Shown here: positions 1-15,009 of the stretch, piece by piece
Numbering within the stretch: the first letter of the stretch is position 1
How the letters are laid out: each line of letters begins with the position of its first letter
Sequence record: OR437326.1
From: Escherichia phage iGC_PHA_EC001
DNA: 64,000 bases
Strand: one strand, 5' to 3'
The notes under the pieces: model-generated
What the model was told of the DNA's origin: nothing
Databases searched by the model: none
The model's input: the letters and a program-made list of their open reading frames with translations, nothing else
Program-made: the position numbers and the translations under genes

Positions 1-330
1 ACCTTCGTTATCCAACATTTCAGCACAATGGTTAAAGAACTTAATGGCAAGACTAGCATTTTTTCCAAACGGAGGATTACCGACAAAAGCAGTTACACTA
101 CCAACAGACTCAACAGATTGAGCTAAAAAATCTGCCTCAATACAATCTTCAAACTTAGGGTCAATATCAAAAGAAGTTATGTTTTTAAAACAAGAAGAGA
201 AAGCCCCTTCTCCCGCAGATGGTTCTACGTAGTTAGCTTCCTCTCCAAAAATTTCTTTGATCTTATCACATAAGAACCCCGCATAAGCGGGGTTAGTGTA
301 ATATTGATCAAGTGTGTTCAACTTGCTCAA
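1..330 (-). CDS. N6-adenine DNA methyltransferase, gamma class (M.TaqI-like), N-terminal part; gene continues beyond left window edge
   Basis: Own minus-strand translation (not in ORF track): ..LDQYYTNPAYAGF..VEPSAGEGAF..SFDIDPKF..FVGNPPFGKN; motif I (EPSAGxGxF) followed by NPPF motif IV; putative TTG start 328-330 after RBS aggagg. Confidence 0.6.
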   Translation of the reverse strand, partial: MSKLNTLDQYYTNPAYAGFLCDKIKEIFGEEANYVEPSAGEGAFSSCFKNITSFDIDPKFEDCIEADFLAQSVESVGSVTAFVGNPPFGKNASLAIKFFNHCAEMLDNEG

Positions 331-339
331 TAGTCCTCC

Positions 340-771
340 TTAGTTGTTAGCGAACTCAATAGTGAGGTCAACTTTACCATCGTCAGAAATAACCATGTTT
401 TTGGTATTTTTAAAGATGATATCTACTTTACCTTCACTTACACGACAGAATGCAACACCATCTGCAACTTTATCGATATAATATTTGTAAGAAAGAATAC
501 CCACTTTACTACGACCAGCACCTTTTGTGAAAGAAGGGTTTACATCGAAACGGAAACCTTTAGAAGAAACAACACGGTAAGAACGTCCAGTTGGAAGATG
601 TTCAATAACAGAGACATTATTCTCAACAACTTTTACAGCAAACTCTTCAGGATGATCCTCAACAATCACATGTGGGATGGCAAATGCCAACGCTTGTTTG
701 TGTTTAATAACACCAGCACCCAGAGCACCAGCAGCTTTAACTTTTGCATTCAGATCGATTGTCATACGCAT
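340..771 (-). CDS. hypothetical protein (143 aa)
   Basis: ORF-track ORF, co-oriented in tight array; no motif recognised. Confidence 0.55.
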   Translation of the reverse strand: MRMTIDLNAKVKAAGALGAGVIKHKQALAFAIPHVIVEDHPEEFAVKVVENNVSVIEHLPTGRSYRVVSSKGFRFDVNPSFTKGAGRSKVGILSYKYYIDKVADGVAFCRVSEGKVDIIFKNTKNMVISDDGKVDLTIEFANN

Positions 772-848
772 TTTTACTTCTCCTCTTGTTTGGTTGATGA
801 GACAAGTATAAGTCCCTTCCGTAAAGTTGTCAACAGGTATTTTTAATA

Positions 849-866
849 AAAGGGCCGAAGCCCTTA
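849..866 (-). terminator. terminator hairpin after primase-helicase gene
   Basis: aagggc-cgaa-gccctt followed on minus strand by ttttatt. Confidence 0.55.
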
Positions 867-2642
867 ATAGTTGCTATCCGTAGGCAAATTAGCAGGATTG
901 TTGAAATACTGCTCTTTGTCATGCAGAGTTGCAGTTCTAATGTCATAGTAAAACTGCCCTGCCGGACCAGTTTCCGAGAACTCACGGTTTTTTAGGATAA
1001 AGCAATGAGTCGTATTGCGTTCTACAGGGTCTTCAGCGGCTTTATCTCGTTCCAAAGCTAAGGTAATACCAGCACCTTTAGCCAAGAAACTACTACCCAT
1101 TGCATCGTCCTCTGTTAAGTGTTCATTGCCACCATTAGCCGATTTCTTAACGTGCGAGATGACGATAATAGTTATAGCATACTCTTTCATGATGCGCTTC
1201 AACCATGTTGCTAACTCTTCCTGGGCTTGAACATCCATACCAGAAAGCAAATCAGAATAAGGGTCGATAACAAGAATTGTTACTCCAAAATAGATGATCA
1301 TCTCCAAAACTTTTTCTTTGATAGACTCCACATCTGCTCCACGATCATCACACACATAAAAACGTGGTGATCCATCTTCTCTTTCGTAAAAATCTAGGAT
1401 TTTTTCTTTATTCTCTTCCAAGATTTGAAATTTCTCTTCCGGTGTTTTCCTGTGTAGAGGAATATGCAGGAACGAGGACAACAGGTTACGAGAATATTTC
1501 TTATAAGTTGCTTCCAAGGACAGAATACCTAGGGTATGTTCTGGGTGCGCAACAATAATATGTTTGGTGATCTCGTTCACCATCAAAGTTTTACCGATAC
1601 TGGTCTTTGCCAGGATGACTGTAATCTCTTCCTCTACTAAACCACCACCCAGCATATTTGCAGCAACACGCATAAAAGGAGGCAAGGTAATCATCTTGGA
1701 TTCCAAGCATTCTAATGCAGCTTCATACAAGACATTAGAAGCATAAACACCTGCTGGGGTGTATAGACGAGCACTCCAAAAAGCTTTTACGAAATCTTTT
1801 GCACGACCTTCTTCCAGATACTGATTGGCATCCTTAAGATCCATCTGCATACGGTAGACTTTGTTACGAGGTAGCACCTTAACAATATTTTCAAATGCCT
1901 CATTACCTGCTTTGTCATTATCCATGCAAACAATAATCTTCTTAAATTTTTCAAAGAAAGGATATTGTGCCTGAACTTGTTTATACATACTGGTTTCACC
2001 AGTTGTGCCACTAACTACTGCTGGAAGTTCATATTTGTTGTCCAAGTTTTCAGACAGCATTTGATAAGCTGCCAGAGCATCGTGTTCACCACCTGTAATT
2101 ACCACAGTATGAGAACGGTCTGCAAAACGAATTTGTCCAAAAAGATCTACATCTTTACCTACTTGACCAATAGGTTTACTGAAATCTTTAGGATGAATAC
2201 GACGCTTAAAACCAACCAATTCTTTACCGATGGTAGTTGGATATAAACAACTTTCTACTACCATCTGATCCCCTTCCTGACGGTATTCATAACGCACACC
2301 ATAGAAAGATGAAACTTTTTCTTTAATGCCTCGATAACCACGTGGGTTGGTTGATGTTTCTTGAACAATTTTACGATGAATCTGTTTATTAAATTCCGAA
2401 CCCACAATCTCCTCCTCTTCTTCTAAAACTTCACCATTTTCTCGTAACCATTCTACGCTAGGAATAGTGTATTCACACGCAAAGCACTTAGCACCTTTAT
2501 GCTCTCCATTAGAATCTAATCCATAAACCATCAGGTTATTACGAGAGCGATCCTTGCCATTTTTCATGCAGCGCGGACAACCTGTATGCCCTTCCTTGCT
2601 AAGATCAACATCAAATCCATATTTAGTTATAATGTGCGACAC
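864..2642 (-). CDS. DNA primase-helicase (zinc finger + TOPRIM + DnaB-like helicase; T7 gp4-like architecture)
   Basis: N-terminal CPRC..CFAC zinc-binding motif, TOPRIM signatures VVITGGEHDALAAYQ and IVCMDNDKAG, P-loop ILAKTSIGKT and Walker B ILVIDPYSDL. Confidence 0.85.
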   Translation of the reverse strand: MSHIITKYGFDVDLSKEGHTGCPRCMKNGKDRSRNNLMVYGLDSNGEHKGAKCFACEYTIPSVEWLRENGEVLEEEEEIVGSEFNKQIHRKIVQETSTNPRGYRGIKEKVSSFYGVRYEYRQEGDQMVVESCLYPTTIGKELVGFKRRIHPKDFSKPIGQVGKDVDLFGQIRFADRSHTVVITGGEHDALAAYQMLSENLDNKYELPAVVSGTTGETSMYKQVQAQYPFFEKFKKIIVCMDNDKAGNEAFENIVKVLPRNKVYRMQMDLKDANQYLEEGRAKDFVKAFWSARLYTPAGVYASNVLYEAALECLESKMITLPPFMRVAANMLGGGLVEEEITVILAKTSIGKTLMVNEITKHIIVAHPEHTLGILSLEATYKKYSRNLLSSFLHIPLHRKTPEEKFQILEENKEKILDFYEREDGSPRFYVCDDRGADVESIKEKVLEMIIYFGVTILVIDPYSDLLSGMDVQAQEELATWLKRIMKEYAITIIVISHVKKSANGGNEHLTEDDAMGSSFLAKGAGITLALERDKAAEDPVERNTTHCFILKNREFSETGPAGQFYYDIRTATLHDKEQYFNNPANLPTDSNY

Positions 2643-2654
2643 TTTGTTCTCCTG

Positions 2655-2933
2655 TTAAAATGGTTCGTTAGTCTCCATCATATATTCTGCTTCTAGTTCT
2701 TCCATATGCTTTCTAAATTGGAAAGCAATTTCTGCTACAGTTACATTTAAATCTTTTTCAAAAACTTCTGTAGAGCCTTCATAAAAACGAATACCGTCAA
2801 TTAAAAGCCCTCCGTGGTAATCCCAATCACTTTCACGAGAAAGCGGGTTAGGCTCTTCATAATAGTAATCCACCTCCACAACTAAGGCTTTCCCGTTACG
2901 AGTGGTGTATTCAAAATCAAAAGTGTTAATCAT
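2655..2933 (-). CDS. hypothetical protein (92 aa)
   Basis: ORF in gene array, stop/start abutting neighbours. Confidence 0.5.
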   Translation of the reverse strand: MINTFDFEYTTRNGKALVVEVDYYYEEPNPLSRESDWDYHGGLLIDGIRFYEGSTEVFEKDLNVTVAEIAFQFRKHMEELEAEYMMETNEPF

Positions 2934-3877
2934 TATAGCTCCTCAAATAAAAGTCTACGACGCTCATTCAACACATCAATGTGATAATGAGTCCTGACAT
3001 ACTTAGCTAATGCTAATCCTTTCTCCATGCAAACATCGGGAGCACTTAATAAGTATTCCGTAATATCTTTCCACTCGGAAGGTGTTTCAGCAAAGAATAA
3101 CAAATCTTTAAACTCTTGTGGATGATAATTCTCACGAGGAGAACAGATCAAAGGTAAACCCTTAGCACCTGCCTCAAGAATTTTAAGATTGCTTTTTGCA
3201 TTATTAAACACGTTATCAATCAATGGCGCAAGACTGATTTGATGACCATCGTAAGATTCCATGTAGTTGGCATATGGTCTTACACCTTCATAAACACAAG
3301 TTGGTGCTACATTTTCTCTGATCACAGACCATTCACGACTACTTAAAACTTCAGAATCCCTACGAAAACCACATATTGTAAGATCTTTACCAAAATCGGG
3401 CAAGATAGCCAAATCTTGTTTATGTGTTTCACTTCCAGCCCAGACTAATGGAGTTTTGGAGTAGCGATCACGGGTCAACACAAATTGACCTTCATCGTAA
3501 GGAAGTCCATTAGGGATTATGTGCACATTATCATTGTATTGTGAAAGTTCAACTTGCAAAGCAGGTGTCGTAGTTGTAACAAGATCGCTGTGCTCTAAAA
3601 ACCATTTTAAATGTTCACGAATACCTGATTCAAAAATACCTTCTAGCATGTGTCCTTTTGGAATAACTAAAGAGTCATCCAAATCCATAACCATTTTAAA
3701 ACCTAGGTTTTTAAGGGCTAAAAAGCCCTCTTTACCTTTTGTTGGCACCCCGTTAAAAACGAAAACGTTGTGTTTAGGTTGTGAAGAGAACTGCCTTGAG
3801 TAAGGCAGCACTACCCTATGGAAATCGCAGACACTATAATTGATTCCGTTACGATTGTCAAGAATTATTTGTCCCAT
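2933..3877 (-). CDS. putative GT-B fold glycosyltransferase (paralog 1)
   Basis: Clear paralog of 3885..4871 (shared CDYHR, VWAG, NxKSNLKILEAGAKG(L/I)P); C-terminal KILEAGAKGLPLI resembles GT1/GT4 family motif. Confidence 0.5.
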   Translation of the reverse strand: MGQIILDNRNGINYSVCDFHRVVLPYSRQFSSQPKHNVFVFNGVPTKGKEGFLALKNLGFKMVMDLDDSLVIPKGHMLEGIFESGIREHLKWFLEHSDLVTTTTPALQVELSQYNDNVHIIPNGLPYDEGQFVLTRDRYSKTPLVWAGSETHKQDLAILPDFGKDLTICGFRRDSEVLSSREWSVIRENVAPTCVYEGVRPYANYMESYDGHQISLAPLIDNVFNNAKSNLKILEAGAKGLPLICSPRENYHPQEFKDLLFFAETPSEWKDITEYLLSAPDVCMEKGLALAKYVRTHYHIDVLNERRRLLFEEL

Positions 3878-3884
3878 ACTTCAC

Positions 3885-4871
3885 CTACAAACTTTCAATA
3901 ACCTGGCGTCGCAACTCGTTTGCATCTGCCAGATTATAATGTGTTCGAACATGTTCAGCCAAGAACAAGCCACGATCTTCCCGATAGTTTGGATTGCGAA
4001 GAAGCTTAACAATTTCGTAATGCCATTCTGCTTTATTCTCTGCGTAAGCAACAGCGCGAGCATCTACAGGGTTAAAATAAGGTAATACCTTAGAACAAAC
4101 AATTGGAATACCTTTTGCTCCAGCTTCCAGGATTTTGAGATTACTTTTACAATTATTAAAATCGTTATCTACCAAAGGAGCTATAGCAATAGCATGACTT
4201 TCGTAAACACTCATGTAATTATCTAAATCTTTTACAGCGGCTTTATATTTGGCATTTGGTAAATTTCTGCGAATCTTAATCCACTCTTGTCCCGTGATGC
4301 TTTGTGATGCTTCATATCCCGCAATAGTAAGAAGTTCATCATCGAAAGTATTAGAGACTAATCGTAAATCTGGTTCGTGACTAGCACCGCCAGCCCATAC
4401 AACAGGGGTACCGGATGAACGATCATTTGACAAAGTGAATTGTCCGCTATCAAAAGGAAGTGCATTTCGGATCACAACGACATTTCTATTTAAGTGACGG
4501 ATCTTATATGCCAAATATTCTGTAGTCACAATAACCACATCAGCAAGCTTAACCATAGCTACAATAGCATGAGTGTTTGACTCGTATAGACTTGCTAAAT
4601 AATGCTCTGGATTAAGTTGGTAAAAATCATCTAAATCTACAACAACCTTAACACCTTGACGTTTCAAAGATAAAACGTATTCTGCACCTTTAGAGTGGAT
4701 ACGGTTAAACACAACAATATCTTTCTTAGGTTGAAAATTATTGTTGTTAAATGGCATAACAATACGATGATAGTCACAACCGCTATGAGGTTTTGCATCA
4801 ATTTTTAGTTTAGACCATTTTTTATTTGACATGTGCCAGTGCCTCCTCATAGGAAATTCGGATTTTCCCAT
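3885..4871 (-). CDS. putative GT-B fold glycosyltransferase (paralog 2)
   Basis: Paralog of 2933..3877; start uncertain (Met1 at 4871 or Met14 at 4832, both with upstream RBS-like sequence). Confidence 0.5.
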   Translation of the reverse strand: MGKSEFPMRRHWHMSNKKWSKLKIDAKPHSGCDYHRIVMPFNNNNFQPKKDIVVFNRIHSKGAEYVLSLKRQGVKVVVDLDDFYQLNPEHYLASLYESNTHAIVAMVKLADVVIVTTEYLAYKIRHLNRNVVVIRNALPFDSGQFTLSNDRSSGTPVVWAGGASHEPDLRLVSNTFDDELLTIAGYEASQSITGQEWIKIRRNLPNAKYKAAVKDLDNYMSVYESHAIAIAPLVDNDFNNCKSNLKILEAGAKGIPIVCSKVLPYFNPVDARAVAYAENKAEWHYEIVKLLRNPNYREDRGLFLAEHVRTHYNLADANELRRQVIESL

Positions 4872-5505
4872 TTTTAATATCCTCTAAAGATGCTTTATAT
4901 TCTTCCCAGTTAATCCCGATAGCAGCTTCTTTCTCTTCTTTTGTCAGATTAGCAAAAGGCATAGGGTTGTTTCCAAAAACATCGTCTGGGTGGATATAAG
5001 CCATGATACGAAGTGGACAAGGTGTTGCCTGAATACCATGATTCAAACCAGCAGCTTGCAAACGGTGTCCCCATTCAGCATCTTCAAAACCATAGCCGTG
5101 AGTGTAAGGACGGAAATAACCCATCTTCTCAACAACGGCACGAGAATACATTGCAAATTGACACATTGCAAGTTCCCAGAGAATAACTTCTCCTTTGCTT
5201 CCAACAACTTTATCTTTGAAATACTCCGGCATACCAAAGAAATCCCATCCTCCAGAGACAGCTTGATCTACAAAGTATGTTTCCCATCCCTCCATGACTG
5301 GGTAGCAATCGTCGTCAAAAATAAACCAATAATCATAACCTTCTTCATAAAACTGGTGCATAAGTTCATTCCTGGCATAAGCTACACCTTTACGATCTGG
5401 ATCGTTGAATACTCGAAAATCTGCACGTGGATCTGTTACAAGGTAGTCTTTAAGTGGACGGACACCTACAGTGATAACACCCACTCCAATTTTAATATTT
5501 TCCAT
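4822..5505 (-). CDS. glycosyltransferase family 2-like (GT-A fold)
   Basis: DYWFIFDDDCYP (DxD-type motif) and HGYGFEDAEWGHR motif typical of GT-A galactosyl/glucosyltransferases. Confidence 0.6.
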   Translation of the reverse strand: MENIKIGVGVITVGVRPLKDYLVTDPRADFRVFNDPDRKGVAYARNELMHQFYEEGYDYWFIFDDDCYPVMEGWETYFVDQAVSGGWDFFGMPEYFKDKVVGSKGEVILWELAMCQFAMYSRAVVEKMGYFRPYTHGYGFEDAEWGHRLQAAGLNHGIQATPCPLRIMAYIHPDDVFGNNPMPFANLTKEEKEAAIGINWEEYKASLEDIKNGKIRISYEEALAHVK

Positions 5506-5513
5506 TTTCTCTC

Positions 5514-6077
5514 CTAAATAGTTTTACTGTGATCATGACAGTGTAATAAATGATGTATAGACCGTTGAGGATTTGTTTGACCTAATCTGTAAATGTGAAA
5601 CAGATACATTCCCCGCATCAATCCTAACCTCTTTCCTTTTTCATGTAAAGTGCGAGAGAAAATTAAGTCGAATTGGATAGATTTTTCTTCGAAAGGAATT
5701 TCATTCCACAATGATTTTCTAAAAAGCAAGAAGAAACCTGCCAGAGGTGTTCCGAAAGGAACTTCTTCAACACTCACTTTATGATATTCTCTTGCAATCT
5801 TAGCATATTCTATATGGTTTAGAATATCTGGATCATCATTAATTTGGTTAGAGAAAAGCTGATAACCACTGCCTAACCTGTTACAAGTTGCACCTATTAC
5901 ATCAAAAGGCGGGTTTGACATAACAAGCTCTTCAAGCATAGATGGTTGATCAGGTAGGAGGAACATTGTATCGGTATCTCTTAAACACACCCAACTATCA
6001 TCTGGAAGAACGGCAATGGCTTCATTGATAGCCTTGCCGATATTTCCTGTCAGATAGGGAGTAATATAATAAATCAT
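5514..6077 (-). CDS. putative nucleotide-sugar glycosyltransferase (GT-A-like)
   Basis: N-terminal YYITPY..N.G..NEAI..D.W..LRDTDTMF pattern reminiscent of GT-A Rossmann-like start; weak. Confidence 0.4.
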   Translation of the reverse strand: MIYYITPYLTGNIGKAINEAIAVLPDDSWVCLRDTDTMFLLPDQPSMLEELVMSNPPFDVIGATCNRLGSGYQLFSNQINDDPDILNHIEYAKIAREYHKVSVEEVPFGTPLAGFFLLFRKSLWNEIPFEEKSIQFDLIFSRTLHEKGKRLGLMRGMYLFHIYRLGQTNPQRSIHHLLHCHDHSKTI

Positions 6078-6094
6078 TCTCCCCCTCCGTTATA

Positions 6095-6286
6095 TTAACT
6101 GTCAGCTACAATCCCACGTTTAATCATTTCTTGTTGAATCTGGATCACACGATCTCGTGCTTCCATATATTCTTTAAAAGATTCTTGGAGATGGTCACGG
6201 GCTACGTCCCGTAGTTTAATCAGTTTGTCGTTTGTCACTTCTTGAAGAGAGATCTCGCCAGTTTCATTGGTCCCAAGCGTTTTCAT
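6095..6286 (-). CDS. hypothetical protein (63 aa)
   Basis: Small ORF in array. Confidence 0.4.
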   Translation of the reverse strand: MKTLGTNETGEISLQEVTNDKLIKLRDVARDHLQESFKEYMEARDRVIQIQQEMIKRGIVADS

Positions 6287-6542
6287 TTACAACCTCCTTA
6301 ATAGCTACTGCACAGTTCTTACAAATACATTGACCTTTGTTCTTAGAAATTTCAATGTAAGGTTCATTTTCGTTTTCTCCGCGTCGTGAGTCGTATATTA
6401 CTGTATTGAAGCAGACAACGCAAATGTTTTTAATAACGACATATTTTTGCACTTTCTGTTTAGTGCGAAAATTGACTTCAATGACTTCTCCCATCAATGA
6501 ATCTCCCCTAAAATGTTGTTTTGAGACATTACTGCGGAGCAT
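6264..6542 (-). CDS. hypothetical Cys-rich protein (92 aa)
   Basis: CVVC..CICKNC spacing suggests zinc ribbon. Confidence 0.45.
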   Translation of the reverse strand: MLRSNVSKQHFRGDSLMGEVIEVNFRTKQKVQKYVVIKNICVVCFNTVIYDSRRGENENEPYIEISKNKGQCICKNCAVAIKEVVNENAWDQ

Positions 6543-6779: not shown

Positions 6780-7301
6780 TTAACTCCCCTTTGGTAGATA
6801 GAAACCATGCACTTTATCTCGATAAACAAGACGCATATCACGTTCCCAGTGTGTCCTTATATTCCGTTTCTTGAAGTATAGAGCACCTTTAGTAACATCT
6901 AAAACAGACCGCAATTCAGGAAAATGTTTCTCTAAATAAAGTAAACGCTCCGCTATTGCTTTTGCTTCCTGCCACTTATCTTTCTCTGTTACGTTAAAAG
7001 TTTTCGCATATGAGAATTGTCCTTTCTGGAACAAGACTCCTCTGACTGTGTTAGGGAAGTAGGTATCATTTCTTCTGTTGATTACCACATTCCCAACGGC
7101 ATTCATTCCTTTTTTACCCAGACCGCGACCTTCTGCGTAAATTGCACAAGCTAATAGAATTTTATCATTATATTGCTTTGTACATTTGTGAACTACTTTA
7201 GCGGTTTTTACGTTTGCAGCTTCGGCTTTCGCCACAACAGGTGTAAATGTAAAAGCAGTTAAGGATAGTAACGCAACTGTTACAAAGTTTTTTATCAGCA
7301 A
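6780..7301 (-). CDS. SleB/CwlJ-like cell wall hydrolase with signal peptide
   Basis: N-terminal hydrophobic leader ending AKA; LLACAIYAEGRG and GNVVINRRN match the Hydrolase_2 (SleB) family pattern; TTG start after RBS aaggagg. Confidence 0.7.
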   Translation of the reverse strand: MLIKNFVTVALLSLTAFTFTPVVAKAEAANVKTAKVVHKCTKQYNDKILLACAIYAEGRGLGKKGMNAVGNVVINRRNDTYFPNTVRGVLFQKGQFSYAKTFNVTEKDKWQEAKAIAERLLYLEKHFPELRSVLDVTKGALYFKKRNIRTHWERDMRLVYRDKVHGFYLPKGS

Positions 7302-7400: not shown

Positions 7401-8003
7401 TTATGGACATTCATACCATTCTTTTTTACCACCGAAGGCCATCACCACATCACAAATATCCAGACCAGCTTTACCTACACCATATGCTTTCAGCTTCCAT
7501 TCCCCATCTTCACGAACCAAGGAAGCCACGTGGCAGATTGTGTTGCCAGCTACTTCAGGAGCCAGGAAGTCAAAATCCAGAATTTCCACATTGCGCTCGG
7601 AGTCGAAGATTTTAAGCATACCTTCAGAAGCATGACCAAAACGTTTCAGACCTGTATCATCATCAATGGTCAGAACAAAGGCAATCTCTTGTGCATCAGG
7701 AGAGATTTTAGCCAGAGTAATATCAATCTGCTCCATGCTGCCAGTTCCATCACGAACATCGTCACCAGCGAAGGTAGAACGTTCAGGATCAAACTTGTTA
7801 GCATAGCAAACCAGATGACGTGCAGACAGCATTTCAGGATTACCAGCGGCATTGTGACGACAAACCAGTGCACTTACATCCAGATCCAGTTTAGAATCAG
7901 ATTTCCAAGAGAATTCCAGGCGCAGTTCTTTCAGAGCCGGAGCAACTTTCTTCAGGGAAATTTTTTCGCTAGAGCCTTTTTTCAGGGAAATTTTATCAGT
8001 CAT
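7401..8003 (-). CDS. TerD-domain protein (tellurite-resistance TerD family)
   Basis: Aligns along its length with E. coli TerD as recalled: DLDVSAL, FAGDDVRDGTGSMEQIDI (Ca-binding GDN..GDGDDE region), FVLTIDD, EDGEWKLKAYGVGK. Confidence 0.9.
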   Translation of the reverse strand: MTDKISLKKGSSEKISLKKVAPALKELRLEFSWKSDSKLDLDVSALVCRHNAAGNPEMLSARHLVCYANKFDPERSTFAGDDVRDGTGSMEQIDITLAKISPDAQEIAFVLTIDDDTGLKRFGHASEGMLKIFDSERNVEILDFDFLAPEVAGNTICHVASLVREDGEWKLKAYGVGKAGLDICDVVMAFGGKKEWYECP

Positions 8004-8018
8004 CTTTTGTCTCCTCTA

Positions 8019-8288
8019 TTATTTAAGTGTAATACCAGTTACAGTCAATTCTACTTCCAAAAGCTTAGATGTGTTTTGGATTGATACTAATTGTGCATGA
8101 TGGTTTAGTTCTACAGCAGAATAATCATTTTCCCCATCATCTACTTTTAAATAAACAATGATTTCACTAAGGTCTAAACCATTTTCGTCAAATGCATTTT
8201 CATAGACGAAAGTATCTCCTACATCCAAATCTTTAATGGTAAGGCATCGTTTATTTACTTTTTGCTCATCAATTTCGAAGTTTAACAC
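8019..8288 (-). CDS. hypothetical protein, small paralog family (copy preceding TerD)
   Basis: Paralog of 9310..9588 (shared DLDVG.TF.Y, GLD, V.L.VT.ITLK). Confidence 0.55.
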   Translation of the reverse strand: MLNFEIDEQKVNKRCLTIKDLDVGDTFVYENAFDENGLDLSEIIVYLKVDDGENDYSAVELNHHAQLVSIQNTSKLLEVELTVTGITLK

Positions 8289-8517
8289 TTCTTCCTCCTA
8301 ATGTTATCTCCGGTTTGTATATACGAAGAATTATAGCATTTTCATTTTCTTTGTCAACCCATTCTTCATAATCGGGCCATACATGAATCTCTACTCTACT
8401 TACAATATCTTCCATTCGCACAGTCCCAATGAAATACTCTTTGAGACTGCGCATAATGAAAGCTTCTCTCTCGCGCCAATAATTTTCTATGACTTGAGAG
8501 GCAAGCTCGTCGATCAT
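8269..8517 (-). CDS. hypothetical protein (82 aa)
   Basis: ORF in operon between vWA and TerD genes. Confidence 0.45.
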   Translation of the reverse strand: MIDELASQVIENYWREREAFIMRSLKEYFIGTVRMEDIVSRVEIHVWPDYEEWVDKENENAIILRIYKPEITLGGRSVKLRN

Positions 8518-9308
8518 TTTTTAGCACCCACTTTAACAACCCACTCTCCGAACTCTTCAGATAAGAGTTTGTCATAAAGCTCTGAATCTGTCAAGTCTAA
8601 ATCTTTAATGCCAATAAAACCAACATTATCATAAGCATTTGCCAGTTCTTTCAGGAAGCCAAACTTCTCATTACCAACGCCAACCATGAACCAATAAATA
8701 GGTTTATTCTTATTCTCTTCGATAAGACGACGAACAGCACTAGGATCACCATTCTCACCATCCGTCTGGAAGAATACAACACTAGGGGTAACGTCAGCAC
8801 CTGGTTCAGATACAGCTACAACTTTTTCACGCTCTACAGACACTGTTTCAGTTTTACCAAGCAGACGATTAAAGAAGCCTTTCTTTGGAGCCTCCTCTTG
8901 TACCACTTGTTTAGTGGTAATATATTTAGTAACAGTGCCAAAATACTCATCGTAGATATCCGCCATTACAGGGGCGTAATTTGTTCCACCTCCGATACGA
9001 ACATTACGCATACATTTACCAACATAGTCATCGTAAACATCTGCTGTTGCTGGAGTAAGCTCTTGGGAACTCGTATTGAAGGCCCACATATCAATTTGTT
9101 GATTATCGTCGAACAGCATACCAAAAGGAAGCAGTTTACCTACAAAATCACTCACTACCCCACTAGAATATAGACCATGCATACTACCAGAAATATCTAG
9201 AGCACATGCTACACGAAGAACAATCTTACCTTCATTCAGGTTCTTATTCTTTTTCAGAGAGAAAGCAAGGTTTTCTTGACGTTTTTTCAGGCTGATTTTC
9301 TCGGACAT
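8514..9308 (-). CDS. von Willebrand factor A (vWA) domain protein with TerD-like N-terminus (TerY/TerF-like)
   Basis: MIDAS motif DISGSM; N-terminal KISLKK..FSLKK repeats like the TerD N-terminus. Confidence 0.7.
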   Translation of the reverse strand: MSEKISLKKRQENLAFSLKKNKNLNEGKIVLRVACALDISGSMHGLYSSGVVSDFVGKLLPFGMLFDDNQQIDMWAFNTSSQELTPATADVYDDYVGKCMRNVRIGGGTNYAPVMADIYDEYFGTVTKYITTKQVVQEEAPKKGFFNRLLGKTETVSVEREKVVAVSEPGADVTPSVVFFQTDGENGDPSAVRRLIEENKNKPIYWFMVGVGNEKFGFLKELANAYDNVGFIGIKDLDLTDSELYDKLLSEEFGEWVVKVGAKK

Positions 9309-9309
9309 A

Positions 9310-9588
9310 TTATTTCTCCTTTTTAAGTGTAATATTGGTAACTTCTAAATCTACTTCCACCATATTTGTATCTGGTGGGATGCAATGAGTATAGCCTCGT
9401 TGTGCTAGTGATCCATTAATACAAATCGCACTGTTTGTGGAATTTTTAATGAACACCAAGTTACGGTAGGTATCCAACCCTGCGTCTTCATAGGCATCAT
9501 AATACATGAATGTTGCCCCTACGTCAAGATCTTCGAAAGCAATAGGTAAATCTTGACTTTTTTCTTCTTGAATATTGAATCTAAACAC
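9310..9588 (-). CDS. hypothetical protein, small paralog family (copy preceding vWA gene)
   Basis: ORF-track ORF 9310..9654 trimmed to in-frame GTG with RBS gaggagg; paralog of 8019..8288. Confidence 0.5.
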   Translation of the reverse strand: MFRFNIQEEKSQDLPIAFEDLDVGATFMYYDAYEDAGLDTYRNLVFIKNSTNSAICINGSLAQRGYTHCIPPDTNMVEVDLEVTNITLKKEK

Positions 9589-10144
9589 GCATACCTCCTC
9601 TACCAATTTTGAAGCCCAAATCGTAAGCTTCCTTAGTGATCTTTTGTAACTCACTTATAGGAAGTGTTACAAGAGGATCATCTTCTTCAATTTCCATCTT
9701 GTCATCTTCTGTTTCAATGAGAGTATTATGCACTTTGTGATAAGGGTTGTCAACACGTTTAAACTTATTCTTTTCTGTGCTGAAAAAACAATCTGGATCT
9801 TCTTCACCATCACCCCAACCTTGGTTAGGATCTCCGTCAGATTGTTCTGTAGGGATTTCACCTGTAAAGTACTCTTCCAGCACCATAGCGATACCGTCCC
9901 TTGGATTTGAGGAATGCATCAAATCACAAACCTTACTCCAATCCATAGCCCATTCAAATCGTTCACGAACGCCGTTTTCATCCTCCTTTCCAGAGAAAAC
10001 ACAACCATAACTATCATAGTTGCCATACATCTCTTCAATAACAACACCGTCCTTCAAAAGAAAAAGATAACAAGGTGATCCGTCGAAAGAAGTAGAAAGG
10101 GCAGCTTTGCCCGATTCTTTGCACAAAAAGCTAAAACAACCCAT
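9581..10144 (-). CDS. hypothetical protein (187 aa), acidic
   Basis: ORF in operon. Confidence 0.5.
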   Translation of the reverse strand: MGCFSFLCKESGKAALSTSFDGSPCYLFLLKDGVVIEEMYGNYDSYGCVFSGKEDENGVRERFEWAMDWSKVCDLMHSSNPRDGIAMVLEEYFTGEIPTEQSDGDPNQGWGDGEEDPDCFFSTEKNKFKRVDNPYHKVHNTLIETEDDKMEIEEDDPLVTLPISELQKITKEAYDLGFKIGRGGMRV

Positions 10145-10347
10145 TACAAACCCTCCTTCAGATTATCAAGAGCTATAGTGGTTTCACAAGAGTCTCCATA
10201 AGTTTTATGATGTTCCAGAAAAGCTTCGGGTCCACCCCAGTCATTATCTTGCGTATTCCAGCCATCAATAAAAGCATCTTCAATGATTGTGATCAGTTCT
10301 TGTCGGGTTAACTGGATAATATTAGGATCGTTATCGTAGTTAAACAT
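10144..10347 (-). CDS. hypothetical protein (67 aa)
   Basis: ORF in operon, start overlaps upstream stop. Confidence 0.45.
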   Translation of the reverse strand: MFNYDNDPNIIQLTRQELITIIEDAFIDGWNTQDNDWGGPEAFLEHHKTYGDSCETTIALDNLKEGL

Positions 10348-10513
10348 CTTCTTCCTCCTCTAAAATATGGAACCCGTAATTACAATAATCCTGAAAGGTT
10401 TCGTGCGCAAGATCTTCTATATCCTCTTGAGACATATCATCTTCAATTTCGATATCCACAACCTCATTGCATCCACACCAAGCAGTTTCAATATTCACTC
10501 GTAATATTTTCAT
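10340..10513 (-). CDS. hypothetical small protein (57 aa)
   Basis: Own translation MKILRVNIETAWCGCNEVVD..; TAATG coupling to upstream gene and ATG overlap with downstream gene. Confidence 0.4.
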   Translation of the reverse strand: MKILRVNIETAWCGCNEVVDIEIEDDMSQEDIEDLAHETFQDYCNYGFHILEEEEDV

Positions 10514-10713
10514 TACTCCTCCTCCTCCTCATTGAAGTCAATATCTGCAATGAGTTCGAATTTACGGAAGTTACGACAACCTTCATAAATATAACAATCA
10601 CGACAAACTGCTAGAACACTTGGGGGATATATACCTCCCATCGGTGCGAATCGTTTTTCGTCATCATAACGGACACCAATGTCTTCATCAATTATATAGA
10701 TACGGATTCTCAT
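10513..10713 (-). CDS. hypothetical protein (66 aa)
   Basis: ORF in operon. Confidence 0.45.
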   Translation of the reverse strand: MRIRIYIIDEDIGVRYDDEKRFAPMGGIYPPSVLAVCRDCYIYEGCRNFRKFELIADIDFNEEEEE

Positions 10714-11822
10714 TTACCAAGCCCTCGTTTCACAGCAGCTACCATCCCGTCTTCCAGAGATTGAACTTCATTAATATAATCAACACGAGCAGCACGGGCT
10801 TCCGTATTGATGCGGTTAGTTTCTTCCAACATCTTAACCAAGTTTTCCTGATCGTGACGCAGAGTTTCAATATCCAACACTTGACGGTTAGCCAGTGCTG
10901 CTGCTTCGATCTGATTCTGTGTGGCAAGATCGCTACCCAGTTTAATTGCTAGGTTAAATTCATCAAGAACGTTATTCTGCGTCTCTGCTGCTTTCATTTG
11001 ACGTAAGCTCTCGATATACATTGAGAAGTTAGCAGAGTAAGCAGGAATAACATTATTTACTATGTTACGCGCAGATCGCATTAAGCTTGCAGAAACTTTT
11101 TGCATACCTTGTACACGCGGTCCCATTTGGACACACAGTAGGCGCAATGCTTTTAAATCTGCAATACGAATCTCCAGAAGATCCAAAGTATCTCGGATCA
11201 CTTGTCGCTGTTCTACTGCATCTTCTGGAAGAGCAGCCAAAGCTTGTTCTTCTTTTTCATAGGTTGCTGTTAGAAGCTGCATATCTCGGTTCAAACTTGC
11301 AGCATATTGTCCAATAGCTTGATGTAGCTTTTCAAGATATACCAAGGAATCTTCTTCTTTGCGAATATCCATTTGAAGGTTCTTTACCAACTCTTCAATA
11401 CGGTTATTAACATTATCAAACTCCCCAAACAGGTCTTCTTTCATACCCATAACTTTTTTAATGAGTTTAGTAATACCCTTGCTTTGTTTAATAGAGTTTG
11501 GATCAAGTTGTTTTGCCTGTTTAATCAAAGCTGTGAGTCGTTCACTCATCTGATCGCCTTGATTACTACGTTGATGTTTTAATACCTCGGCATTCAAGGA
11601 GCGCAAGGTTGTTCCTGCCTCTGCCCCAATCTCTTCGATCTCTTGTCGGGTCATAGAAGGCAAAACTGGAACTTCTTGCGGTGCCGCTGGTGCATAAACA
11701 GGACTGGCATCTAACACGCTTGGAGCGAATACAGATTTACTTGCATCTGTTGTTGCAGCAAATACGCTCATTTCAGGCTTCTTCTGACCACCAGTAGCTG
11801 CTTTTAAAAATGGACTTGTCAT
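10710..11822 (-). CDS. TelA-like toxic anion resistance family protein
   Basis: About 370 aa coiled-coil protein; N-terminal region (..KHQRSNQGDQMSERLTALIKQAKQLDPN) matches my recollection of the TelA N-terminal signature (D.GE....LT.L....K...P); size and architecture fit the TelA/KlaA family. Confidence 0.6.
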   Translation of the reverse strand: MTSPFLKAATGGQKKPEMSVFAATTDASKSVFAPSVLDASPVYAPAAPQEVPVLPSMTRQEIEEIGAEAGTTLRSLNAEVLKHQRSNQGDQMSERLTALIKQAKQLDPNSIKQSKGITKLIKKVMGMKEDLFGEFDNVNNRIEELVKNLQMDIRKEEDSLVYLEKLHQAIGQYAASLNRDMQLLTATYEKEEQALAALPEDAVEQRQVIRDTLDLLEIRIADLKALRLLCVQMGPRVQGMQKVSASLMRSARNIVNNVIPAYSANFSMYIESLRQMKAAETQNNVLDEFNLAIKLGSDLATQNQIEAAALANRQVLDIETLRHDQENLVKMLEETNRINTEARAARVDYINEVQSLEDGMVAAVKRGLGK

Positions 11823-12409
11823 TCTTCATTCTCCTCTTCTGCATCTCTTATATATGGTGAAACACCGTACTCTTTAGCTACTTTAACCCAATCGTCCCAT
11901 TTATACAACCATAATTTTCCTTCGGTCCCTTCTTTATCTGATTTCAACCACATATTAGGTTGCTTACCTGGGTACATGCGATTAGGTTTACGATTATAAC
12001 CTCTAACACATCTTGTCGCAAACCTATCTACCAGAACAAGAACATATTTATACTCGTGGTTCAACGGCTCTTTGGAAGTGGCTTTAGGATTAGCCCCTAA
12101 TTCTGCTGCCAGTTTTTGCCAATGAGCACCGTGCCTACTAAACTTACCCATACAACCATCAATAGCATGAGCAATTTCGTGCTTCATTGTATCCACGATC
12201 ATATCTCTTGTGGAGTTCTTATGCAAGTGCCAATTTACAACAACAATTTTATCTCGGTAGTTGCACCAACCGAAAGAGTTATTCACTTTGTTTCTAACAC
12301 AAGCTTTATATCCTGCTTCACGTAACATGTTGTAGTAAACAGGAAAATCTTCTTTTATTTCCTGCATCACTTCCCACCACAAGAGTTGCAAGTCTCTCTC
12401 GGTATGCAT
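11819..12409 (-). CDS. SprT-like zinc metalloprotease domain protein
   Basis: HEIAHAIDG (HExxH) within a SprT-like context (TMKHEIAHA..G..SRHGAHW). Confidence 0.6.
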   Translation of the reverse strand: MHTERDLQLLWWEVMQEIKEDFPVYYNMLREAGYKACVRNKVNNSFGWCNYRDKIVVVNWHLHKNSTRDMIVDTMKHEIAHAIDGCMGKFSRHGAHWQKLAAELGANPKATSKEPLNHEYKYVLVLVDRFATRCVRGYNRKPNRMYPGKQPNMWLKSDKEGTEGKLWLYKWDDWVKVAKEYGVSPYIRDAEEENEE

Positions 12410-12412
12410 AAC

Positions 12413-13006
12413 TTACACCTTAAAAGCGAAATGCGTGGTCGTGGCTTCAAAATCAGGGCCAGATAAACTTGCACTGAAATCTGAAATATTTGTAATTAAA
12501 AAGCTTTTATGCATACCTAACACAGCCACGCTTTCAATATCTTCTACTAACATTTCAATCATGTTAGAAACATGGCTGAACGTATAGTTTTGTTTTTTGA
12601 TGGTGTAGAAAGAAAGACTCCCACCTGCTGTATAAGATACCTCTTCAAAATCTTTAATCGTATATTGTGTGCCATCAGTAAAGAAAATGGTAGCTTTATT
12701 AGTAGCACGTTTCTTGTTTTTTGGTCCTTTTTTACGTTTACTGCGAGTAGGCAAACCGTTTGGAAATACTGTAGCTACAAATTCTTCAGGAGAAACCTCC
12801 TTACCGAAATCATAACCGTAAGAAACAGCGTCTATAAACTCGTCGTCTTCATTTTTAAAATAATGGAAATAGGGCCAATTTGAGAGATTATCGAGCATCT
12901 TATGCTCATCCACAGCAGAGAACGTATCCCTCAAAGCGCGTGTGATTTGCAAAGCATTAGGCAAACTTTTAACACCTGTAATGGAAGTACGAATAGAAAT
13001 TGTCAT
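12413..13006 (-). CDS. hypothetical protein (197 aa)
   Basis: ORF in operon. Confidence 0.5.
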   Translation of the reverse strand: MTISIRTSITGVKSLPNALQITRALRDTFSAVDEHKMLDNLSNWPYFHYFKNEDDEFIDAVSYGYDFGKEVSPEEFVATVFPNGLPTRSKRKKGPKNKKRATNKATIFFTDGTQYTIKDFEEVSYTAGGSLSFYTIKKQNYTFSHVSNMIEMLVEDIESVAVLGMHKSFLITNISDFSASLSGPDFEATTTHFAFKV

Positions 13007-13020
13007 TGTTTTTCTCCTTA

Positions 13021-13458
13021 TTAACGTCGCTTGCTACGAGATGAACTCTTTTTACTTAAAGGGCTATTGTAAGATTTGCGAGTTGTATAGCTACTATTTG
13101 TTTTAAAAGTTTGTCTCGGCTTTTCATAAGTTTTTATCTCTTGTTTAGGCTTACCATAAAAATTAGTTTTCGGTTTAGGTGTATTATAATGCTTATTAAT
13201 AATCGTTCTGTTATCGTTATAATCCCCACTGTTACGATTACTACCACCACTCATCATATGCCCTAACAACATACCTGTAGCAAACTCACCAACACCGCTA
13301 CTACTAGAACCGCCACCATTGTTGATAATAGTTGTATCTCCGTCAGATCCTTGTTGAGCGTATTGTTGAGGAGGTTGTTGGTATTGTGCAGGATTTGTTT
13401 CATCCTCGCAAGCTGTTAAAAAGATACAACCAATTAAAATCAGGGCTAGTTTTTTCAT
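13021..13458 (-). CDS. putative lipoprotein, Gly/Ser-rich with basic C-terminus
   Basis: ORF-track ORF trimmed to Met26: MKKLALILIGCIFLTAC = signal peptide plus lipobox (LTAC); RBS gaggaaag upstream. Confidence 0.55.
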   Translation of the reverse strand: MKKLALILIGCIFLTACEDETNPAQYQQPPQQYAQQGSDGDTTIINNGGGSSSSGVGEFATGMLLGHMMSGGSNRNSGDYNDNRTIINKHYNTPKPKTNFYGKPKQEIKTYEKPRQTFKTNSSYTTRKSYNSPLSKKSSSRSKRR

Positions 13459-13645
13459 ATTTGCTTTCCTCATTTTGACTATTAATACATCTGTGTTTGA
13501 AATCTCCAGAGAAGCAATAAAGTTGCTCTCCATCTCGGTATAAACTCACTTTACTGCCGTTGATTACGCTTGTCAATACAAAAATTACAACAAACAACCC
13601 TATTGCAAAACAAATATTTTCAAACACAATCAACAAGTATTTCAT
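13400..13645 (-). CDS. possible small membrane protein (overlaps lipoprotein gene start)
   Basis: Hydrophobic N-terminus; overlap makes it doubtful. Confidence 0.25.
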   Translation of the reverse strand: MKYLLIVFENICFAIGLFVVIFVLTSVINGSKVSLYRDGEQLYCFSGDFKHRCINSQNEESKYEKTSPDFNWLYLFNSLRG

Positions 13646-13992
13646 TTTAAAAATACCTCATCATCAGTTTCATTATCCCAGAAGAACAAATCCCAACCAT
13701 TCGGATCATTCCATTTGGCTGCTGGAGAAGTCCATATTTGTTCGATATCAATATTCAAAACTTCACCGTTTCGTTTTGAAACAGCTTTAGTTAATTCCCA
13801 ACGAGATACAGGCTCTACTTCCCCTGAACCACTCCCACAACAAGCTACCACGTTAGGAGGCAAATTAATTGGATCTTTGGTCACGATCATAACGCTTACC
13901 CCAGGGTAAACTTTTGAAAGATAATCTAAAACGTAATCCACATCACCAGATAAATCCCAAACAAGTTCTTGAATTTCATCAAAATTATTCAT
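13642..13992 (-). CDS. hypothetical protein (116 aa)
   Basis: ORF-track ORF. Confidence 0.5.
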   Translation of the reverse strand: MNNFDEIQELVWDLSGDVDYVLDYLSKVYPGVSVMIVTKDPINLPPNVVACCGSGSGEVEPVSRWELTKAVSKRNGEVLNIDIEQIWTSPAAKWNDPNGWDLFFWDNETDDEVFLK

Positions 13993-14008
13993 AAGTCTCT
14001 CCTATAAA

Positions 14009-14026
14009 ATAGCCTCCCGAAGGAGG
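14009..14026 (-). terminator. hairpin terminator after the TerC gene
   Basis: agcctcc-cgaa-ggaggct hairpin, T-rich on minus strand. Confidence 0.5.
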
Positions 14027-14034
14027 CTCATCTA

Positions 14035-15009
14035 TTAAACAGCAGCTTCTTCTTTTTCAGGGAAGATAAAGCTTGCAATAACACCAAGAGCTAATGTGCC
14101 TAGAACAATCATCAGACTTACGTTAGGGGAAATATCATGCGGGAGGAATGACCACTTGGCATGAAGTGTTTCACCGAACGGGTGATACATAAGTTTAGCA
14201 CCGACAAATACCAGAACCACAGCAACAGCTTTCTCTAAGTGAACCAGATATTTCACAGCCACACTTAACACAAAGAAAAGTGCACGTAAACCAAGAACAG
14301 CCATCAGCATTGCAGAATAAACTAGCAGAGGTTCTTGTGTCACACCGATCACAGCCGGAACTGAATCAAAAGAGAAGACAATATCTGTAAGCTCAATAAC
14401 AAACACACAAAGAAGAGCAGGAGTTGCATATTTAATACCATTCTTAATGGTGATGAACTTTTCACCATCCAGTGCATTGTGCACAGGCAGAACTTTACCT
14501 ACTAAACGAACAGCCCAATGCTTAGAGTAATCAATATCCTCTTCTTCGTCACCACCTTTGATGATAGCCACGGCAGACCAAGCTACAATCAAACCGAACA
14601 ACACTTGGACCGACCAATGAAGGTTAAACAAAGCGGTCCCTGCTGCAACAAAAATACCTCGGAAGACAATGGCTCCTGCAATTCCCCAAAGTAAAATCTT
14701 ATGTTGGAGATGTGTGCTCTTAATTCCAAAGCTTGCAAAAATTGCCATGAACACCATCAGGTTATCTACAGAAAGACTCTTTTCCAACACATAGCCACTT
14801 AGGAAAAGCGCGGCAAACTCTTTACCATGTTCTACCCAAATGAATGCGTAATATCCTAAAGCTAAAGCAATCCAAAAAACAGACCAAAGCAAAGCAGATT
14901 TAATTCCAATTTCTTTATTCTCTTTATGACCAAAGAAATCAATACCAATAGACAATGCTAAAATACCAACTAAAACAACTACATCAATAATGGGGAAACC
15001 GAGTTGCAT
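14035..15009 (-). CDS. TerC-family integral membrane protein
   Basis: Multi-pass hydrophobic protein with the family signature EKSLSVDN. Confidence 0.8.
   Translation of the reverse strand: MQLGFPIIDVVVLVGILALSIGIDFFGHKENKEIGIKSALLWSVFWIALALGYYAFIWVEHGKEFAALFLSGYVLEKSLSVDNLMVFMAIFASFGIKSTHLQHKILLWGIAGAIVFRGIFVAAGTALFNLHWSVQVLFGLIVAWSAVAIIKGGDEEEDIDYSKHWAVRLVGKVLPVHNALDGEKFITIKNGIKYATPALLCVFVIELTDIVFSFDSVPAVIGVTQEPLLVYSAMLMAVLGLRALFFVLSVAVKYLVHLEKAVAVVLVFVGAKLMYHPFGETLHAKWSFLPHDISPNVSLMIVLGTLALGVIASFIFPEKEEAAV

Follow-up and report, generated by a model that had tools for sequence, protein, structure and literature searches.

Mycobacteriophage Che8 is reported to glycosylate its capsid and tail-tube proteins with glycosyltransferases (GTs) of its own, gp110 being named essential, and the glycans on mycobacteriophage virions are described as reducing antibody recognition and thereby shielding the virions (Freeman et al. 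2023, as summarised in PMC12363180). Here we describe a set of four GT genes in Escherichia phage iGC_PHA_EC001 (sequence record OR437326.1), located at positions 2933-6077 of a 64,000-nucleotide stretch that we refer to as the window. The genes encode two enzymes of predicted GT-A fold, GT-A187 and GT-A227, and two paralogous enzymes of predicted GT-B fold, GT-B328 and GT-B314. They are best explained as a self-contained, horizontally mobile phage cassette for glycan assembly, for which virion proteins are our tentative choice of acceptor.

Comparison with the locus found in Che8, Corndog and Myrna revealed both shared and distinct features. Like that locus, the cassette is a phage-encoded set of several GTs without predicted membrane segments, and GT-A227 is homologous to the cluster-F protein annotated as 'galactosyltransferase' or GT in the syntenic locus. 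The best relatives of GT-A227 beyond enterobacterial phages were GTs of 356 Mycobacterium phages (25-27% identity over ~130 residues, E ~1e-8), and these matches lie in a right-end locus syntenic with Che8 gp108-110, just before HNH and terminase genes. In prophages of Serratia and Pseudomonas, too, HNH and terminase genes follow closely on the homologous cassette, an arrangement that the Che8 locus shows across the genome ends. In contrast, Che8 infects a host of another phylum, lacks a GT-B partner and has a fused methyltransferase domain; the cassette of the present phage adjoins replication genes and tellurite-resistance-type (Ter) genes.

Two other viral systems invite comparison. In chlorovirus PBCV-1, which makes its own sugar nucleotides and encodes the rhamnosyltransferase domains of A064R, the major capsid protein is the experimentally established acceptor. 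The present phage resembles PBCV-1 in combining a virus-supplied rhamnose-nucleotide pathway with GT-A enzymes, independent of host glycosylation genes, although PBCV-1 infects eukaryotes and no sequence or close fold relation was seen. Like the alpha- and beta-glucosyltransferases of phage T4 (AGT and BGT), the GT-B enzymes are encoded among replication genes, near a DNA methyltransferase, a primase and a polymerase; T4, however, adds a single glucose, whereas four GTs and a deoxy-sugar pathway are present here.

The locus encodes four glycosyltransferases of two predicted folds

Along their entire length, positions 1-6100 of the window shared 99% identity with Escherichia phage phAPEC8 and with dozens of further phages of the genus Phapecoctavirus, within the subfamily Stephanstirmvirinae; ~16 sequenced phages were 99% identical across the stretch, and 64 records were at least 95% identical to the first ~6.1 kb. 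The window as a whole maps to phAPEC8 from ~106,686 to the genome end and then on to ~24,175. All four cassette genes are already annotated as glycosyltransferases in RefSeq, and they are conserved, real genes rather than chance open reading frames (ORFs). The original prediction, made from the sequence, of four co-oriented GTs, two of them GT-A-like and two paralogous and GT-B-like, was borne out by motifs, structural models and the 41% identity of the GT-B pair (E 1e-76). The gene neighbourhood it described also stands, but the order in which it told the genes does not: every gene in the first 30 kb of the window is on the minus strand, so that transcription of positions 1-6077 runs the opposite way, from GT-A187 through GT-A227, GT-B328, GT-B314, a 92-residue ORF and the primase/helicase to a promoter-like site, a 143-residue ORF and the start of a methyltransferase gene.

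Both GT-B proteins matched the Pfam models Glyco_trans_1_2 and Glyco_trans_1_4 (for Glyco_trans_1_2 at 25.1 bits against a 25-bit cut-off) as well as phrog_7162. An AlphaFold model of GT-B314 built with 30 homologues reached a predicted local distance difference test score (pLDDT) of 92.8 and gave 227 Foldseek matches in the PDB at E<=0.001, led by GT4 enzymes, with GlgM, BshA, PglA, MshA, GtfC/Gtf3 and SdgB at the top. The model thus predicts a GT4-like GT-B fold of two Rossmann-like domains. GT-B314 is a lineage-specific duplication; GT-B328 is the copy nearer to the homologues in temperate phages, sharing 50% identity with the Serratia homologue, 46% with the lambdoid and 40% with that of phage L005. 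The true start codon of GT-B328 is probably internal, near 4832, and a shorter ORF is given in the phAPEC8 annotation. Directly downstream of the pair, the start codon of the 92-residue ORF overlaps the stop codon of GT-B314, and phi92-like phages have a small gene at the same position. This protein, for which no homologue was found in temperate-phage cassettes, may be an accessory of the cassette.

The first gene of the cassette encodes GT-A187, which had no Pfam match, alone or among 22 relatives, and which matched the PHROGs family phrog_14179, 'glycosyltransferase'. Its AlphaFold model (pLDDT 93.1) recovered GT-A enzymes throughout the best 50 fold matches listed, save one UDP-glucose pyrophosphorylase at rank 50. 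Matches in the PDB included LH3, GalNAc-T2, COLGALT1, SpsA and RmlT, the GT domain of LH3/PLOD3 ranking first, and comparison to predicted viral structures identified a Cellulophaga phage GT (template-modelling score 0.87). Invariant residues among its relatives were D34-x-D36, N66-R67, H161 and Y163-R164. The model is consistent with a GT-A enzyme consisting of a single Rossmann-like domain with a DxD motif for metal and nucleotide-sugar binding.

In GT-A227, D64-D65-D66 and E141-D142 (the latter in a YGxED motif) are invariant, and an exhaustive search returned 357 representative relatives. Among 72 diverse relatives, 39 matched Glycos_transf_2, the best at 2e-17, and 35 matched Glyco_transf_7C. 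The invariant DDD at 64-66, taken with relatives that reach Glycos_transf_2 at this level, points to a GT-A enzyme. Sequence and profile comparison of GT-A187 with GT-A227 gave no significant relation, and no useful match came from searching PDB sequences with three of the GTs or with the GT-A227 profile. None of the four GTs contained a strongly predicted transmembrane segment (maximum 19-residue Kyte-Doolittle hydropathy 0.76-1.65), so the enzymes are probably cytoplasmic.

The GT-A227/GT-B pair is part of a portable phage module

Protein databases contain few members of the GT-B family, nearly all of them phage-borne, and a scan of IMG/VR yielded at least 568 relatives. Statistics on gene order rest on 107 fetched loci. 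GT-A227 and GT-B were both present in 47 of these and, in 41 of the 47, were adjacent and co-oriented with GT-A227 directly upstream; 15 of the loci with both genes also contained GT-A187. Carriers of the GT-B family, often with the GT-A partner, included phages of Enterobacterales, Pseudomonas and Bacteroidota, and GT-B occurred alone in an Acetivibrio (Bacillota) genome. The matches in Bacteroidota genomes are most likely prophages, because phage structural gene families are shared among them.

A prophage of Serratia sp. M24T3 has its cassette genes in the same order as the window (GT-A187 41%, GT-A227 36% and GT-B 50% identical, the last to the 328-residue copy), flanked by lysis genes on one side and by HNH, terminase and capsid genes on the other. 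In lambdoid contigs the GT-A/GT-B pair immediately precedes the holin, in phage L005 it lies between the large terminase gene (TerL) and the portal gene, and in Pseudomonas prophages the cassette is just upstream of DUF2280, TerL, portal and major capsid protein genes. Overall, 34 loci had TerL at most 8 kb downstream of the cassette and a small terminase gene 2 kb downstream. A search of 5,426 E. coli genomes and of the phage collection did not find the lambdoid version. Scans around temperate-phage cassettes revealed no convincing bracket of a separate promoter and terminator, so that these cassettes look like part of the late transcript. Judged by these arrangements, GT-A227 and GT-B form a portable module that is widespread among phages and usually lies a short way ahead of the terminase and head genes.

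Several further protein families accompany the module. Two of them, of ~160 and ~101 residues and without Pfam or PHROG match, are encoded immediately upstream of acyltransferase, GT-A and GT-B genes (L059:3240-3722, L060:4713-5018 and ~45 other IMG/VR or Bacteroidota loci) and occurred in 16 and 13 dereplicated locus groups, respectively; they could be further cassette components or acceptors. Pfam and PHROGs gave no function for the conserved neighbour families of environmental phages (160, 101, 683, 396 and 215/216 residues). In a Pseudomonas silvicola prophage, the gene directly preceding the GT-A/GT-B pair (L014:8628-9269) encodes a 213-residue protein with a Big_2 (bacterial Ig-like) domain. 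Domains of this type are frequent decorations of phage capsids and tails, and this protein is a candidate acceptor.

Proposed sugar donors and glycan assembly

Related cassettes contain embedded genes for sugar-nucleotide tailoring, a sign of glycan assembly. A hexapeptide acyltransferase gene was found within the cassette at 30 loci, an RmlB-like dehydratase gene at another (L041), and a DegT aminotransferase gene together with a gene for a GT_PLOD protein at a third (L120), the latter fitting the LH3/PLOD3 domain that was the top PDB fold match of GT-A187. Contigs of Gammaproteobacteria and of a Dechloromonas metagenome-assembled genome (L028-L032) encode proteins of 880-1700 residues in which GT2 and GT4 domains are joined and the C-terminal domain is a distant member of the present GT-B family, a Rosetta-stone argument that GT-A and GT-B enzymes work in one pathway. 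Close relatives of the cassette vary, some lacking GT-A227 and some having a single GT-B, and such variable composition is typical of surface glycan loci.

A donor pathway is encoded by the same phages. The Rml proteins of phAPEC8 all scored above the NCBIfam equivalog cut-offs (score/cut-off: rmlA 464/361, rmlB 431/365, rmlC 225/156, rmlD 237/224), and the rml cluster lies outside the window, ~13 kb beyond its end. In the phage collection, RmlC was found in 64 records at an identity of at least 95% and in 65 at 60-80%, and GT-B in 64 and 66, respectively. Because the two distributions match, at least one of the GTs is probably a rhamnosyltransferase; that these GTs draw on the rhamnose pathway we infer solely from the co-occurrence.

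Virion proteins are the tentatively favoured acceptor

We propose that GT-A187, GT-A227 and the duplicated GT4-like GT-B act in the cytoplasm, where they would add sugars successively to build a short oligosaccharide. The donors would be dTDP-L-rhamnose, made by the phage RmlABCD enzymes, and host UDP-sugars, and the acceptor would be one or more virion proteins, modified before or during assembly as in Che8. The alternative to DNA already raised when the locus was first read, namely host surface or virion proteins, is the one that the evidence favours, and within it we give a tentative preference to virion proteins specifically, as a possible rather than a probable answer. Two lines of evidence lead to this preference. 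The cassette moves among phages of very different hosts, so that its target is likely to be phage-borne, and it repeatedly adjoins head genes, which, with the Che8 parallel, directs attention to the virion.

Several observations weigh against virion proteins as the acceptor. In the present phage the cassette is located among replication, Ter and endolysin genes, not beside structural genes, and its position downstream of sigma-70-like promoters makes early or middle expression possible. A terminase-adjacent position, as seen in the temperate phages, is also where morons, genes whose action is on the host, are classically found. The cassette-bearing phages have differing virion modules and hence no obvious acceptor protein in common. 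With Che8 gp108 itself the match was marginal (E 1e-3), and alignments of GT-A227 and GT-A187 compared with profiles of Che8 gp108, gp109 and gp110 gave no significant match; the mycobacteriophage link therefore rests on tblastn matches to other cluster-F phages, and we regard the link to Che8 as a parallel at the level of family and position, not as proof. Finally, a cryo-electron microscopy study of phi92 at 3-4 angstrom, with atomic models of capsid, tail and baseplate, makes no mention of glycosylation or extra density (PMC13450770), a negative that is only mild since glycans borne on flexible tails would escape detection there. A glycoprotein-stain study that detected no virion glycosylation in the E. 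coli phage JEP7 and other phages was uninformative here, JEP7 (53-kb) and JEP6 (170-kb) being unrelated to this group.

Host envelope, DNA and other acceptors

The main rival to virion proteins is remodelling of the host envelope, which we consider possible though on balance doubtful. Here the cytoplasmic GTs would attach residues containing rhamnose to intermediates, undecaprenyl-linked or core, of enterobacterial common antigen (ECA), lipopolysaccharide (LPS) or a different surface glycan, either in the course of infection or in lysogens of the temperate carriers, and masking of the receptor would exclude superinfection or keep progeny from being lost on debris. dTDP-4-keto-6-deoxyglucose is common to the rhamnose and ECA sugar pathways, which agrees with this proposal, as do the temperate-phage positions near lysis and terminase genes, the classic moron sites. 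GT4 and GT2 enzymes, like the multi-GT fusions, are of a kind typical for polysaccharide assembly, the sigma-70-like promoters ahead of the cassette in this phage are compatible with early action, and ECA and the LPS core are reported as receptors of these phages (PMC8594841). Against it, the envelopes of the carrier hosts differ greatly, which makes a host-specific acceptor awkward, and in a lytic cycle there is little time for surface glycans to be replaced.

Comparison with GtrABC brings out a further difficulty for an envelope acceptor. Temperate phages of the same hosts carry glycosyltransferase functions in this form, and GtrABC O-antigen seroconversion needs a flippase and the integral-membrane protein GtrC. 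The cassette shares with GtrABC the phage-borne GT functions, but it includes no membrane protein, flippase or Gtr-like component, its four GTs lack a strongly predicted membrane-spanning segment, and they showed no homology to Gtr proteins. Nor was an autonomous promoter or terminator for expression in a lysogen found in scans around the temperate-phage cassettes; lysogenic conversion by a moron was considered as the best reading of these loci and, for want of a convincing promoter-plus-terminator bracket, not adopted.

DNA hypermodification, in which the GTs would place rhamnose or other sugars on phage bases as a defence against host nucleases, perhaps together with the methyltransferase, is in our view unlikely. 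DNA glycosylation was proposed earlier for these genes (PMC7552041, PMC10844046), and the original prediction likewise suggested it, along with an anti-restriction module that combined the methyltransferase and the GTs. The location of the cassette in a DNA-metabolism region, beside the primase/helicase, DNA polymerase and methyltransferase genes, resembles that in T4, where b-gt, gene 42, dam, primase and polymerase genes are neighbours, and since every phage carries DNA, the mobility of the cassette would fit. There are also sub-threshold similarities in the GT-A227 family, to phrog_842 (beta-glucosyl-HMC-alpha-glucosyltransferase) and to the TET-associated glycosyltransferases (TAGT, PF20691), the latter the most-matched Pfam model among close relatives of GT-A227 (17 of 19, best E 1e-4), with the match lying around the DxD motif.

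The enzymes that would prepare DNA for such a sugar were, however, not found. Searches by tblastn of the whole phAPEC8 genome and the window with T4 hydroxymethylase, BGT and dCTPase identified no homologue (best E-values 0.2-1.2), the dCMP hydroxymethylase gp42 giving nothing better than E 1.2 and BGT nothing better than E 0.9. BGT and AGT were also absent from the top 50 fold matches of GT-B314, a structural comparison, the AGT sequence not having been used as a query. The only thymidylate-synthase-like gene of phAPEC8 is ThyX-like, not ThyA-like, so that, with no hydroxymethylase homologue, the usual hydroxyl acceptor on DNA has no visible source. This ThyX-like gene is annotated as similar to those of rV5 and PVP-SE1, and rV5-like phages are absent among the GT-B matches. 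Neither a TET/JBP dioxygenase nor a C5-cytosine methyltransferase is annotated anywhere in phAPEC8, no dedicated hidden Markov model search for TET/JBP having been run. GT-A227 itself scored 19.5 bits against the TAGT model, below the 27.5-bit gathering threshold and with similarity only around the DxD region. Assignment of GT-A227 to TAGT was rejected on this score and because the similarity fades in the wider family, where TAGT was matched by 5 of the 72 diverse relatives compared with 39 for GT2 and 35 for GT7C.

Biological data on relatives also argue against DNA. The phi92-like phages, which carry the same GT cluster (checked in EmilieFrey) and rml genes, are described as 'exceptionally susceptible' to restriction-modification systems (PMC8594841). 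The temperate-phage cassettes lie in late and head regions, and four GTs together with sugar-tailoring enzymes imply an oligosaccharide, unlike the known DNA sugars. We therefore consider that the acceptor is quite probably not DNA. A rhamnose-containing sugar on DNA without hydroxymethyl-pyrimidine, for example at scattered sites of defined sequence or on a base that is neither C nor T, strikes us as a long shot; were it true, such a mark could escape tests of type I-III restriction on relatives and protect against other defences, and it would constitute a new class of DNA glycosylation, carried by a cassette that travels among phages whose hosts span several bacterial phyla.

The methyltransferase was correctly predicted, yet it belongs outside the GT module. 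The motif I sequence VEPSAGEG (residues 36-43) precedes the motif IV sequence NPPF (85-88) in a protein of 264 residues with a long C-terminal region, an order that indicates the gamma class of N6-adenine methyltransferases, and the protein matched phrog_799, 'DNA methyltransferase', at 1e-10 and is an N6-adenine methyltransferase in the phAPEC8 annotation. It had no match in Pfam or NCBIfam, Pfam having been tried on both the fragment and the full length. Its distribution and that of the GTs separate in both directions. Vequintavirus (rV5-like) phages have homologues of the methyltransferase at ~54% identity, and none of them is among the 146 records holding the GT-B. Conversely, the phi92-like BASEL phage EmilieFrey has the same arrangement as the window (GT187, GT-A, GT-B, GT-B, small ORF, primase/helicase), followed by a small ORF and then the DNA polymerase gene, with no methyltransferase there. 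In the window the promoter-like site (833-805) lies between the methyltransferase unit and the GT and primase genes. The methyltransferase thus appears, from gene content, to be an independent neighbour in the replication region, and the proposed combined anti-restriction module is not supported in view of these separate distributions, the intervening promoter and the reported restriction sensitivity of relatives.

The primase/helicase is likewise a neighbour outside the glycosylation module. In a Logan contig from another phage lineage (DRR173099_39656; L119:1447-5367), a GT-A187-like gene and a GT-B gene were found directly upstream of a primase/helicase gene, so that adjacency of GT and primase genes is not unique to Stephanstirmvirinae.

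A small molecule or host protein as acceptor, such as a nucleoside-like metabolite tied to the Ter-type genes or a host factor to be inactivated, is distinctly unlikely: although a Ter-type cluster (TerD, vWA-TerF, TelA, TerC) lies immediately upstream on the same strand and is kept in phi92-like contigs, and the nucleoside glycosyltransferase AvpGT is a weak fold match of GT-A187, the proposal rests on adjacency in one lineage only, no Ter genes lie near the temperate-phage or environmental cassettes, and the GTs showed no specific resemblance to those of toxin type or to small-molecule GTs.

Implications

The GT annotation of the four genes and the speculation on DNA glycosylation were already known; at least three papers had singled out these rhamnose and GT genes as a puzzle and surmised DNA glycosylation (PMC8594841, PMC7552041, PMC10844046). 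The new elements are the recognition that a phage glycosylation cassette is both widespread and portable and, with it, a testable hypothesis for a question that several phage-genomics papers had left open. An isolated oddity of annotation thereby becomes a general, directly testable question, and the tempting label of 'anti-restriction module' is removed as unsupported. Should the cassette decorate virions, it would, as far as we are aware, be the first system of this kind described among phages that infect Gram-negative bacteria. Phapecoctavirus and phi92-like phages are often considered for therapy and biocontrol, and glycosylation of their virions would be relevant to therapeutic use, since the glycans of mycobacteriophages lower antibody recognition.

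Neighbouring genes and additional observations

Features of the locus and its surroundings are collected in Table 1.

Table 1. Positions of the cassette genes and their neighbours in the window, with the basis of each assignment.
Feature	Position	Strand	Basis
Gamma-type N6-adenine DNA methyltransferase-like gene, first 110 codons of 264 aa	1..330	-	motif order, phrog_799
143-aa protein (hyp143)	340..771	-	phrog_9938, no Pfam match
Sigma-70-like promoter, 11/12 matches, heading the hyp143/methyltransferase/DNA polymerase unit	805..833	-	site also annotated in phAPEC8
DNA primase/helicase	864..2642	-	Toprim_2 and DnaB_C; phrog_239 at 2e-164
Conserved 92-aa protein	2655..2933	-	phrog_4240, no Pfam match
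GT-B314, second paralogous GT-B glycosyltransferase	2933..3877	-	paralogy, predicted fold
GT-B328, GT4-like GT-B glycosyltransferase	3885..4871	-	phrog_7162, Glyco_trans_1_4/1_2
GT-A227, GT2-like GT-A glycosyltransferase, 227 aa, conserved GT-B partner	4822..5505	-	invariant motifs, Pfam matches of relatives
GT-A187, minimal GT-A-fold glycosyltransferase, 187 aa, first gene of the cassette	5514..6077	-	phrog_14179, predicted fold
TerD	7401-8003	-	
vWA-TerF-like	8514-9308	-	
TelA	10710-11822	-	
SprT-like metallopeptidase	11819-12409	-	
TerC	14035-15009	-	

Within the 5' end of the GT-B314 gene there is a sigma-70-like site at 3833-3861 (11/12 match), and a perfect 12/12 match to the sigma-70 consensus with an extended -10 TG is located on the minus strand at 8330-8357, upstream of the run of small ORF, TerD, endolysin and GT genes. 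Two genes upstream of the cassette, a small conserved ORF on the minus strand (6264-6542; phrog_15360) contains the cysteine pairs CVVC and CICKNC, and its product looks like a zinc ribbon. The endolysin gene (Hydrolase_2, SleB-like; 6780-7301, minus strand) belongs to the replication-side gene block, away from the spanin near the terminase, and its product has a hydrophobic, signal-like N-terminus, MLIKNFVTVALLSLTAFTFTPVVAKAEA, which suggests that the enzyme is exported by a signal-peptide or signal-anchor-release route instead of being cytoplasmic and dependent on a holin. The Ter set, which spans 7401-15009 of the window just upstream of the GT cassette, has the same arrangement in the phi92-like contigs L117 and L118.

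GC skew switches sign sharply at ~30 kb of the window, from -0.1 to +0.27, coinciding with the switch from minus-strand to plus-strand genes, so that the two halves of the window are transcribed divergently. One relative, ABPW7 (OP562383), is recorded as an 'Acinetobacter phage' and is 98.9% identical to the window. This record and four 'Campylobacter phage' records, A110a, C3, C14 and A140 (MG065689, MG065656, MG065653 and MG065674, respectively), matched, over the genes compared, E. coli phages of the phi92-like or rV5-like groups, and the stated hosts of all five GenBank records look doubtful, for example through contamination or mislabelling.

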